DNA of 64,000 nt from a virus (lineage: Duplodnaviria > Heunggongvirae > Uroviricota > Caudoviricetes). Of the stretch, positions 51,561 to 52,149 are shown piece by piece (the first letter of the stretch is position 1; each line of letters begins with the position of its first letter). Below the pieces are notes generated by a model. That model worked only from the letters and a program-made list of their open reading frames with translations. It was not told the DNA's origin and did no database searches. The stretch lies in the IMG/VR virus record IMGVR_UViG_2875697941_000001; one strand, given 5' to 3'. The translations under genes were made by a program, and so were the position numbers.

Positions 51561-51893
51561 TTAGTTACCGCTAATAGCTCGGTTGTAATCATTAACGTTG
51601 CGATTCTTCCTGTTAATCCCCATCAGCATCGTTTCTGTATCGAGGATATACGCTGGCAGATCATCAAAATATTCACTGCTAAACTCTGGCATCCTACACA
51701 TAAATGCACTTTTGGGGGCAGGGTGGTTAACCTTTGTCGGCGTCGGCGTTAAATTCGCTGATCGACTCCCGGAGCAACCGCTGAGTGTCAGCAGGAATAC
51801 GCTGGCGAACATTACCCGCCGCAACCAGTTGTTTCTGAACTTCAGCTTTTCGTTCCATTTGCCTGTCAGCATACTTGGCTTGTTCTGATTCAT
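51561..51893 (-). CDS. Lipoprotein (P1 mlp position; o-spanin-like)
   Basis: Lipobox LTLSGC, Pro-rich mature part; ATG 51893 with AGGAAG RBS; starts inside the 3' part of the upstream gene in another frame. Confidence 0.5.
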   Translation of the reverse strand: MNQNKPSMLTGKWNEKLKFRNNWLRRVMFASVFLLTLSGCSGSRSANLTPTPTKVNHPAPKSAFMCRMPEFSSEYFDDLPAYILDTETMLMGINRKNRNVNDYNRAISGN

Positions 51894-52149
51894 TTTTCAC
51901 TTCCTGGCTGTGAAAATGTTGCTCTGCTTTGTTCATCGTCTCAATGGTCTGGTTAAGATCCATTATTGACTTATCACGTTCCTTAACAGCCTGATCAAGA
52001 CTGCCAATTTTCTCTATGGCTTGCTTTAGCTGATGACGTTCCCATGCAAACCCAGCACCAACAAGTGCGCAAATCAGAACAAGAACACCAGTAGCAGCAA
52101 GTTTCTCCTTCAAAGACAAAGCTGTTTTTAACGTAGAAAAGAATGACAT
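51727..52149 (-). CDS. TM plus coiled-coil protein (P1 ppfA position; i-spanin-like)
   Basis: ATG 52149 with AGGAGG RBS; single N-terminal TM helix then coiled coil; 167-nt overlap with the lipoprotein gene. Confidence 0.45.
   Translation of the reverse strand: MSFFSTLKTALSLKEKLAATGVLVLICALVGAGFAWERHQLKQAIEKIGSLDQAVKERDKSIMDLNQTIETMNKAEQHFHSQEVKNESEQAKYADRQMERKAEVQKQLVAAGNVRQRIPADTQRLLRESISEFNADADKG

Follow-up and report, generated by a model that had tools for sequence, protein, structure and literature searches.

The closest described system is the ppfA/mlp gene pair of phage P1, also known as gp064/gp063. In Table S1 of Kongari et al. 2018, the two proteins appear as spanins of the overlapped type, gp064 being the i-spanin and gp063 the o-spanin. 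The P1 spanin genes were likewise named as ppfA and mlp by Bednarek et al. 2022, who credited the identification to Summer et al. 2007 and noted that their operon is unlinked to the other lysis genes of P1. The pair is also labelled Rz/Rz1 in several GenBank records. Both genes have been included in a CRISPRi screen, in which the efficiency of plating was 1.3/1.2 for ppfA and 0.24/0.19 for mlp, and both were scored as non-essential for plaque formation. The same study found Rz of lambda to be essential, yet scored the lambda endolysin R as non-essential.

The DNA examined here, referred to as the window, is the whole stretch of 64,000 nucleotides from the virus record IMGVR_UViG_2875697941_000001. 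Between positions 51100 and 53300 it shares 99.5% DNA identity with phage P1. The ORF at 51727-52149(-) is P1 ppfA and the ORF at 51561-51893(-) is P1 mlp, with 100% identity of both the PpfA and the Mlp protein (Table 1). The overlap, the ribosome binding sites (RBSs) and the operon upfC-upfB-ppfA-mlp-upfA are the same as in P1, and the pair itself is without any difference. The identity to P1 stops near position 51105, and the downstream repA/replicon of the host element differs from that of P1. A two-component spanin is the most likely product of these two ORFs, which are ppfA and mlp of a P1-type phage-plasmid. As a putative spanin pair of a P1-type phage-plasmid this is a rediscovery of a published assignment, and the dispersal of the lysis genes is already described for P1; since both are in print, the finding brings nothing new to phage biology. 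It does indicate that a spanin pair can be spotted from the letters alone, by its architecture, even far from the endolysin and holins.

Table 1. Features of the ppfA/mlp locus and of the other lysis genes in the window (spans of lysis genes are tblastn matches of P1 proteins against the window, stop codons excluded).
Feature	Position	Strand	Description
ppfA, i-spanin candidate	51727..52149	-	140 aa; a single transmembrane domain (TMD) between a short cytoplasmic N-terminus and a 104-aa helical periplasmic domain
ppfA Shine-Dalgarno AGGAGG	52155..52160	-	5-nt spacer to ATG; sequence read
PpfA transmembrane segment, residues ~17-36	52042..52101	-	hydropathy; carries the only Cys of PpfA, C27
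Dual-coding overlap, 167 nt	51727..51893	-	PpfA residues 86-140 and Mlp residues 1-55
mlp, o-spanin candidate	51561..51893	-	110 aa; lipoprotein signal peptide of 39 aa, mature lipoprotein of 71 aa
mlp Shine-Dalgarno-like AGGAAG	51900..51905	-	6-nt spacer to ATG; inside ppfA codons
Lipobox L-S-G-C, Mlp residues 37-40	51774..51785	-	Cys40 is the candidate lipidated +1 residue
upfC (PAAR spike tip)	52986-53270	-	P1 annotation; PAAR Pfam and PHROG matches; upstream in presumed ppfA operon
upfB (baseplate ‘tripod’)	52189-53034	-	P1 annotation; cryo-EM assignment (PMC12810830); upstream in presumed ppfA operon
upfA	51157..51549	-	downstream operon gene; P1 annotation; phrog_1453
lyz (SAR endolysin)	8951-9505	-	tblastn; P1 annotation, late promoter LPlyz
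lydD	~8746-8955	-	tblastn
lydE	8639-8851	-	tblastn
lyz-lydD-lydE locus	8639..9505	-	~42.6 kb from ppfA
lydB (antiholin)	18866-19306	-	tblastn
lydA (holin)	19306-19632	-	tblastn
lydC	19703-19981	-	tblastn
lydC-lydA-lydB locus	18866..19981	-	~32.5 kb from ppfA

The ppfA gene begins with an ATG at 52149-52147. The sole strongly hydrophobic segment of its product covers residues 17-35, LAATGVLVLICALVGAGFA (Kyte-Doolittle 19-residue mean 2.35), and the N-terminal 17 aa ahead of the TMD have a net charge of +2. PpfA therefore shows the single N-terminal TMD and type II (N-in, C-out) topology of an i-spanin. AlphaFold2 models a helix at residues 13-110, running through the hydrophobic segment and with block pLDDT values of 70-79, a break at 111-119 (AGNVRQRIP) and a further helix at 120-138 (mean pLDDT 69 for the whole protein). 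In a heptad scan, 7 of 8 a/d positions around residues 45-75 are hydrophobic. The model and the scan together point, with moderate confidence, to the mostly helical, coiled-coil-prone periplasmic domain of an i-spanin, here formed by two helices and a linker. These results agree with the initial annotation, which had proposed one N-terminal transmembrane helix followed by a coiled coil. The periplasmic part of PpfA contains no Cys, in agreement with Kongari et al. 2018, who recorded ‘one [Cys] in TMD’ and 0 periplasmic Cys for the P1 i-spanin.

The mlp gene begins with an ATG at 51893-51891. Strong RBSs had been claimed for both genes and both were found, that of mlp being good yet weaker than that of ppfA. 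Mlp has the properties of a small-lipoprotein o-spanin, namely a signal for signal peptidase II, a lipobox and a +2 residue other than Asp. The lipobox LTLSGC was located as described, with L-S-G-C at residues 37-40 and the cleavage LTLSG/C giving a mature protein that begins CSG. The Ser at +2, in place of Asp, predicts sorting to the outer membrane. Kongari et al. 2018 reported that LipoP puts the cleavage site at position 39; the signal peptide was flagged as ‘too long’ and did not pass the Prosite lipoprotein rule. At 39 aa it is atypically long, and the Pfam model LPAM_1 matches Mlp at only E = 0.12. All 7 diverged relatives compared, and LysC of P2, have the lipobox Cys. Across the whole window, a relaxed lipobox pattern gave 10 matches, versus 5.9 +/- 2.7 in shuffles, and the Mlp lipobox by itself is not beyond chance. 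It is the pair that stands above chance, through its conservation, the selection acting on each frame and the way its genes are arranged, taken together.

The mature part of Mlp had also been called Pro-rich. This stands for the first 30 mature residues, which hold five of the six Pro, and does not extend to the whole, where Pro makes up 6 of 71 residues (8.5%). The AlphaFold model of Mlp is of low confidence (pLDDT 57.6), with the mature N-terminal half unstructured. Mature Cys27, within FMCRMP, is invariant in the relatives and aligned with a Cys of P2 LysC. Under the rule of Kongari et al. 2018, a spanin pair carries at least one Cys for homotypic disulfide linkage, and in this pair the periplasmic Cys is Mlp Cys27.

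Spanin genes are arranged as embedded, overlapping or adjoining pairs. As had been noted from the sequence, mlp starts inside the 3′ end of ppfA in another frame; on the minus strand it begins 256 nt into ppfA in the +1 frame, which gives the overlap of 167 nt. The +1 overlapped arrangement is also kept in the relatives L002, L008-L011 and L014. Nucleotide identity to diverged relatives is 0.75-0.79 in the overlap versus 0.60-0.63 in the part coding for PpfA only, and the C-terminus of PpfA is nearly invariant among relatives. For ppfA codons 1-85, comparison with five relatives (59-64% PpfA identity) gives an omega of 0.15-0.26. For mlp codons 57-110 it is 0.07-0.10 in three of the five comparisons, those with computable dS, and the part of mlp outside ppfA has pN of 0.12-0.18 versus pS of 0.66-0.90. 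Inside the overlap, omega of the mlp frame exceeds 2. Purifying selection acts on each of the two frames in diverged P1-like elements. Conservation of the pair together with its neighbours reaches as far as lineage L014, at 31% PpfA identity, and down to this lineage Mlp keeps its lipobox Cys, its second Cys and the C-terminal motif DDLPxY...INRKN.N. The position of the mlp start codon is kept to within one codon in diverged loci, and that of the RBS is conserved as well. Automatic gene callers mostly truncate or miss mlp in the relatives. P1-like phage-plasmids are widespread and carry resistance genes, and mlp is routinely mis-called when they are annotated automatically.

A profile search of 1.84 billion representatives returned only 33 matches, nearly all of them P1-like fragments, and the PpfA family is therefore narrow. 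The same search gave three further full-length, more distant relatives (P0102, P0107 and P0117), the remaining matches being coiled-coil noise. A scan of genome contigs with the PpfA alignment found three near-identical loci only, and a scan of viral contigs with P0107 gave no match.

Similarity to Rz/Rz1 of lambda is undetectable and that to LysB/LysC of P2 is weak. In a Pfam scan of both proteins, neither Rz, Rz1 nor another informative family appeared at E <= 1, with weak coiled-coil noise only. Aligned by hhalign with the single sequences of lambda Rz and P2 LysB, the PpfA family reached a probability of 1-2% (1.6% for lambda Rz), and the match to the LysB family was weak (probability 39%, 43 columns, mostly the TMD). 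Lambda Rz belongs to phrog_13, not phrog_89. Membership of the lambda Rz/Rz1 sequence families was rejected on the missing Pfam match, the hhalign value for lambda Rz and the different PHROG. PpfA matches phrog_89 at 5e-25, a score perhaps inflated if P1 PpfA itself belongs to that family, and P2 LysB matches it at 6e-61. Mlp matches phrog_456, the family of P2 LysC, at 2.7e-5 and phrog_3198, that of lambda Rz1, only at E = 0.02; in the reverse direction, P2 LysC matches phrog_30284, the family of Mlp, at 5.4e-4. By BLASTP, Mlp is 37% identical to P2 LysC over 68 aa (E = 1e-7). The top NCBIfam matches are LysB (TIGR03495) for PpfA and LysC (NF038368) for Mlp, and both lie far under the curated cut-offs for membership (18.2 bits with a cut-off of 92.75, and 14.7 bits with a cut-off of 27). 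A search of PDB sequences with the PpfA profile gave only a chance ribosomal match (E = 0.038). The putative spanin function is thus predicted from architecture and not from membership of a family.

All the structural features examined of an overlapped, Rz/Rz1-type spanin, as the pair was first interpreted, are present, and Kongari et al. 2018 and Bednarek et al. 2022 made the same assignment. The location within a lysis cassette that is typical, not obligatory, for spanin genes is absent, with 42.6 kb to lyz and 32.5 kb to lydA. The tblastn matches bear out the proposed dispersal of the lysis genes over three loci, with lyz at 8.9-9.5 kb, lydC/A/B at 18.9-20.0 kb and ppfA/mlp at ~52 kb. All the relatives retrieved, the one at 31% identity among them, keep the order upfC/upfB-ppfA-mlp, and in none of these does an endolysin or holin adjoin the pair. 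When the window was scanned for another spanin-like pair, none stood out. The only other convincing lipoprotein, at 34790-35311(-), was considered as an alternative o-spanin and rejected; it has 173 aa and another PHROG assignment, and no type II membrane protein lies upstream as a partner.

Expression of the operon is late. In P1vir RNA-seq (PMC8201110 Table S1), the log fold change of upfC, upfB, ppfA, mlp and upfA was 4.1-5.6 at 10 min and had reached 10.5-11.2 by 30 min. The same pattern was recorded for lyz (6.1 to 11.3) and lydA (5.2 to 11.8), and the late pattern is shared by the structural genes and lydB (PMC8201110 Table S1). The adjacent early genes uhr, hrdC and dmt already stand at 8.6-9.4 by 10 min (PMC8201110 Table S1). 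The kinetics of ppfA and mlp are thus like those of lyz and lydA/B and unlike those of the early genes. A weight matrix for Lpa-dependent late promoters was built from five sites of the window, the annotated LPlyz among them. No canonical site of this type was found upstream of the operon, the best scoring 2.8 bits at 53324(-) versus 27-32 for the five training sites. Two sigma-70 promoters inside upfB, P1ppfA and P2ppfA, were predicted by the P1 annotators; a generic scan for sigma-70 promoters and terminators gave no excess over the shuffled expectation.

The mechanism proposed for PpfA and Mlp is modelled by analogy on the lambda Rz/Rz1 paradigm. PpfA would be held in the inner membrane by its single N-terminal TMD, with the coiled-coil-prone helical domain of ~104 aa reaching into the periplasm. 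Mlp would be exported, lipidated at Cys40 and, after cleavage by signal peptidase II, delivered to the outer membrane, where it would sit in the inner leaflet, its subunits probably being covalently dimerised through the conserved mature Cys27. Binding of the two proteins via their C-terminal regions may then form a periplasm-spanning bridge threaded through the peptidoglycan. Destruction of the murein by the LydA holin and the SAR endolysin Lyz could then release the complexes to collapse, leading to fusion of the inner and outer membranes and completion of lysis. The two genes are transcribed late with the baseplate-spike genes upfC/upfB, and not with lyz or lydAB. In P1 the lysis functions are thus coordinated in time and not by linkage.

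The constant position directly after upfC/upfB, and never by an endolysin or holin, could also be read as a sign that PpfA and Mlp are non-lysis envelope proteins tied to their operon partners, with a role in assembly or entry with UpfC/UpfB or, as a lipoprotein pair expressed from the predicted sigma-70 promoters inside upfB, in superinfection exclusion or in lysogenic conversion. The predicted promoters inside upfB and the knock-down without a plaque phenotype would fit such a role. It is nevertheless unlikely, as spanins are characterised by just this pairing of an inner-membrane protein of type II with a lipoprotein overlapping in the +1 frame, and the o-spanin resembles P2 LysC. Expression is late and not prophage-like, ppfA and mlp go unmentioned among the virion proteins in LC-MS/MS and cryo-EM (PMC12810830) studies, and the P2 spanin genes also lie among late morphogenetic genes, so that an operon shared with structural genes is not unusual. 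That the coupling to upfC/upfB reflects a real functional link is judged distinctly unlikely; PpfA/Mlp would then be a fusion module acting outside lysis, or there as well, in envelope penetration, spike assembly or exclusion, or P1 would have a spanin-independent route through the outer membrane. A pair of decayed or redundant spanin genes contributing little, with the outer membrane breached otherwise, would account for the contrast with the essential lambda Rz in the CRISPRi study and for the unusually large P1 lysis set (lydA, lydB, lydC, lydD, lydE and lyz). We consider a remnant of this kind very unlikely, given the purifying selection on both genes across diverged lineages and a scan of the window in which no other spanin-like pair stood out. 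The CRISPRi plaque assay also gives false negatives, because the lambda endolysin R was scored as non-essential too.

The lipobox ORF might instead have arisen by chance in the alternative frame of ppfA, or translation of its product might start elsewhere, leaving a single functional frame. The frequency of relaxed lipoboxes in shuffled sequence, the atypically long signal peptide, the omega of the mlp frame in the overlap and the failure of automatic callers to give mlp in full all lean towards this reading. More than half of mlp, however, lies outside ppfA and is under strong purifying selection there, and the ATG, the RBS position, both Cys and the C-terminal motif are conserved. The high omega is confined to the loosely constrained n-region of the signal peptide, and is expected if the ppfA frame dominates in the overlap. 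A single functional frame is therefore regarded as extremely unlikely, and the two-component spanin is kept as the preferred reading.

Among known spanins, LysB/LysC of P2 are similar to PpfA/Mlp in size (141/96 aa versus 140/110 aa) and in their +1 overlap (146 nt in P2 versus 167 nt in P1). P2 LysC and Mlp have in common a lipobox, a PTP-type Pro stretch and a conserved C-x-MP motif, and the genes of both phages are set among late morphogenetic genes. In P2 the pair comes immediately after holin Y, endolysin K and lysA; in P1, 32-43 kb separate it from the holin and endolysin. Another difference is that P2 LysB carries periplasmic Cys (C120 and C126, both invariant) and PpfA has none.

With Rz/Rz1 of lambda the pair shares the functional blueprint, in which an inner-membrane protein of type II, helical in its periplasmic domain, is combined with a small lipoprotein of the outer membrane read from the +1 frame, as well as Cys available for intermolecular disulfides. 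However, Rz1 is wholly embedded in Rz, while mlp merely overlaps ppfA, and the lambda spanin genes are part of the S-R-Rz/Rz1 cassette. Lambda Rz1 is also far richer in proline than Mlp. The separated spanin PseT.3/PseT.2 of T4 differs from ppfA/mlp in that its genes are non-overlapping. It resembles the P1 pair in having an i-spanin without periplasmic Cys and an o-spanin that carries Cys, the latter also with a predicted C-terminal helix like Mlp. Like ppfA/mlp, the T4 pair lies apart from the genes for the holin (t) and endolysin (e), and T4 provides a precedent for unlinked spanins (Kongari et al. 2018).

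The overlapping genes at 51561-52149(-) are the already known ppfA/mlp pair of phage P1, its predicted spanin genes. As the initial annotation had proposed, mlp begins inside ppfA in another frame; its start lies 256 nt into ppfA in the +1 frame, leaving an overlap of 167 nt. Shine-Dalgarno sites precede both genes, as had also been noted: a perfect AGGAGG 5 bases ahead of the ATG of ppfA and AGGAAG 6 bases ahead of that of mlp. Window positions 51100-53300 are 99.5% identical to P1 (NC_005856, 62900-65093), and the encoded PpfA and Mlp are 100% identical to the P1 proteins. In the P1 record the genes run upfC-upfB-ppfA-mlp-upfA, with oriR and repA next; upstream, on the upfC side, lies the divergent uhr-hrdC-dmt operon with its C1 operator.

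Table S1 of Kongari et al. 2018 (PMC6139136) lists the pair in a spanin family of its own, 'P1', as overlapped i-spanin gp064 (140 aa, 104 periplasmic; one Cys in the transmembrane domain, none in the periplasm) and o-spanin gp063 (110 aa, one periplasmic Cys). The 39-aa signal of gp063 (TLSG/C, LipoP cleavage at 39) is flagged there as 'too long', with no Prosite match. Bednarek et al. 2022 (PMC9025707) describe the two genes as partly overlapping, in an operon unlinked to the other lysis genes, and credit Summer et al. 2007 with their identification from predicted features; the labels are swapped in their text (ppfA 'o-spanin', mlp 'i-spanin'). Rz/Rz1 labels for the pair are already found in several GenBank entries for P1-like phages. 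In P1-like genomes, automatic calls overlook mlp or give it only 44-52 aa, because its start sits inside ppfA. Despite these calls, the full ORF of 109-110 aa with its lipobox is present in Cronobacter phage JK004 (L002) and in four further assemblies, including Salmonella and Klebsiella (L008-L011).

Coordinates of the putative spanin genes, other lysis genes, late-promoter-pattern sites and shortened mlp calls
Feature	Coordinates	Strand	Remark
ppfA ORF	51727-52149	-	140 aa
mlp ORF	51561-51893	-	110 aa
lyz	8951-9505	-	tblastn with P1 protein
lydD, lydE	just downstream of lyz	-	tblastn with P1 proteins
lydC/lydA/lydB	18866-19981	-	tblastn with P1 proteins
Late-promoter-pattern sites (five, strong)	5870(+), 9613(-), 19682(-), 25632(-), 46300(-)		include annotated LPlyz and site upstream of lydA
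mlp call, L002	6458-6592		shortened
mlp call, L008	4431-4589		shortened
mlp call, L010 and L011	4449-4589		shortened
mlp call, L009			no call

The expected N-terminal transmembrane segment and helical domain of PpfA are both apparent. The sole strongly hydrophobic stretch, residues 17-35, has a Kyte-Doolittle mean of 2.35; the short N-terminus before it carries a net charge of +2, and the 104-aa periplasmic part after it is 36% charged. The AlphaFold2 model (18-sequence alignment, mean pLDDT 69) shows two helices, a continuous one over residues 13-110 and another over 120-138, with a break between them at 111-119. In Mlp the lipobox LTLSGC was located as described: its Cys is residue 40, Ser occupies +2, and the signal-peptide n-region ahead of it is long, poorly conserved and unusual. 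The predicted mature part (71 aa, second Cys at mature position 27) had been called Pro-rich, which applies in part: the enrichment is modest, with 6 Pro among 71 residues and 5 of these within the first 30. In a low-confidence model the signal peptide is helical, the N-terminal half of the mature protein is unstructured, and short helices follow towards the C-terminus. The lipobox pattern alone has 10 matches in the window, which is no excess over the 5.9 +/- 2.7 expected from shuffled sequence, so the spanin case rests on the combined features and conservation.

Placement of the P1 lysis proteins by tblastn bears out the dispersal over three loci: about 42.6 kb separate ppfA from lyz, and about 32.5 kb separate it from lydA. 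The same layout has been published for P1 (PMC9025707), and T4 is a precedent for spanin genes unlinked to other lysis genes (PMC6139136). In P1vir RNA-seq (PMC8201110, Table S1), the log fold change of upfC, upfB, ppfA, mlp and upfA rises from 4.1-5.6 at 10 min to 10.5-11.2 at 30 min. The structural genes follow the same late pattern, as do lyz (6.1 to 11.3), lydA (5.2 to 11.8) and lydB (3.4 to 11.0), which indicates that the dispersed lysis genes are co-regulated in time; the divergent uhr, hrdC and dmt reach 8.6-9.4 by 10 min. A late-promoter matrix (ACAAGT[GT]A[CT]T...TAnnnT) was built from the five clear sites of the window, 27-32 bits each, which are useful landmarks for its late operons. 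Its scan found no canonical Lpa-type promoter in 53271-53420(-), upstream of the upfC-upfA operon; the best match, CACAAATAACCTAAGTTAAAAT at 53324-53303(-), scores 2.8 bits against 27-32 for the training sites. The C1 operator Odmt shares this intergenic region.

The overlapped pair and its neighbourhood are kept in all compared loci, namely L002, L008-L011 and the IMG/VR contig L014. PpfA of L008-L011 is 59-64% identical to that of the window, and that of L014 just 31%. In L009 (4424-4977) intact upfA is absent 3' of mlp, leaving a short truncated reading frame. Omega (Nei-Gojobori, five comparisons, each relative against the window) is 0.15-0.26 for single-coding ppfA codons 1-85 (nucleotide identity 0.60-0.63) and 0.07-0.10 for single-coding mlp codons 57-110 (pN 0.12-0.18, pS 0.66-0.90, identity 0.72-0.77), omitting one and two of the five comparisons, respectively, where pS was saturated. 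In the overlap, omega in the ppfA frame is 0.14-0.24 (identity 0.75-0.79). The overlap is under selection mainly via the ppfA frame, while the Mlp n-region drifts. In the mlp homologues of L008 and L009 (PpfA variants P0057, Salmonella-named, and P0053, Klebsiella aerogenes-named) the lipobox is LTLNGC or LTLNAC; Asn at -2 is unusual, outside the Prosite rule, and synonymous in the ppfA frame.

That only one frame functions is now very unlikely. Purifying selection in both single-coding parts, the invariant or nearly invariant Mlp lipobox Cys, second Cys and C-terminal DDLPxY...INRKN.N motif, and an mlp start that shifts by no more than one codon together rule this out, so far as comparative data allow. 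Against a spanin role stands a genome-wide CRISPRi screen, which scored both genes non-essential (efficiency of plating 1.3/1.2 for ppfA, 0.24/0.19 for mlp). In that study lambda Rz was essential, yet the lambda endolysin was also called non-essential, so a negative score carries little weight. In the operon, cryo-EM identifies UpfC as the PAAR spike tip, to which UpfB is attached as a 'tripod' (PMC12810830); neither that paper nor the virion proteome paper mentions ppfA or mlp. Architecture, conservation and the listing by Kongari et al. 2018 support the predicted spanin pair, and ppfA/mlp very probably form a functional two-component spanin; the small remaining share is split between an envelope function outside lysis that is linked to the spike operon, redundancy and a single functional frame.

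P1 identity of the window stops near 51105. The replication initiator and iterons beyond (49000-51150; repA ORF 49938-50879(-)) differ from those of P1 but match E. coli phage-plasmids, among them NZ_CP073955.1 (94 kb), at 100% identity; there the initiator is labelled 'RepB family initiator' and adjoins a GIY-YIG nuclease gene. The window therefore derives from a P1-like phage-plasmid whose replicon has been exchanged. A Gly-rich lipoprotein of 173 aa (lipobox LLSGC) is encoded within 34247-35311(-); immediately after it comes a protein of 179 aa that combines a signal peptide with a highly charged coiled-coil region. For the lipoprotein, the top PHROG carries the label 'DNA methyltransferase', apparently a mislabel. 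This pair is envelope-targeted, but its arrangement is not spanin-like.

The PpfA family is narrow: among 1.84 billion representative proteins, a profile search returned just 33 matches, almost all P1-like. Lambda Rz and Rz1 sit in other PHROGs (phrog_13 and phrog_3198), with no detectable similarity to PpfA (hhalign probability 1.6% for Rz, no Pfam match). The nearest relative is P2 LysB/LysC, also overlapped and nearly equal in size. PpfA matches phrog_89 (defined by LysB) at 5e-25 and Mlp matches phrog_456 (defined by LysC) at 2.7e-5; in reverse, LysC matches phrog_30284 of Mlp at 5.4e-4, and in pairwise BLASTP Mlp and LysC share 37% identity across 68 aa (E = 1e-7). The top NCBIfam matches, LysB for PpfA (18.2 bits, cut-off 92.75) and LysC for Mlp (14.7 bits, cut-off 27), fall below threshold, and hhalign of the PpfA and LysB families is weak (39% probability over 43 columns). 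Judged by these families' own thresholds, the P1 pair is not a member of the Rz/Rz1 or LysB/LysC sequence families, in agreement with the separate 'P1' family of Kongari. By architecture, it would work like an Rz/Rz1 or LysB/LysC spanin.
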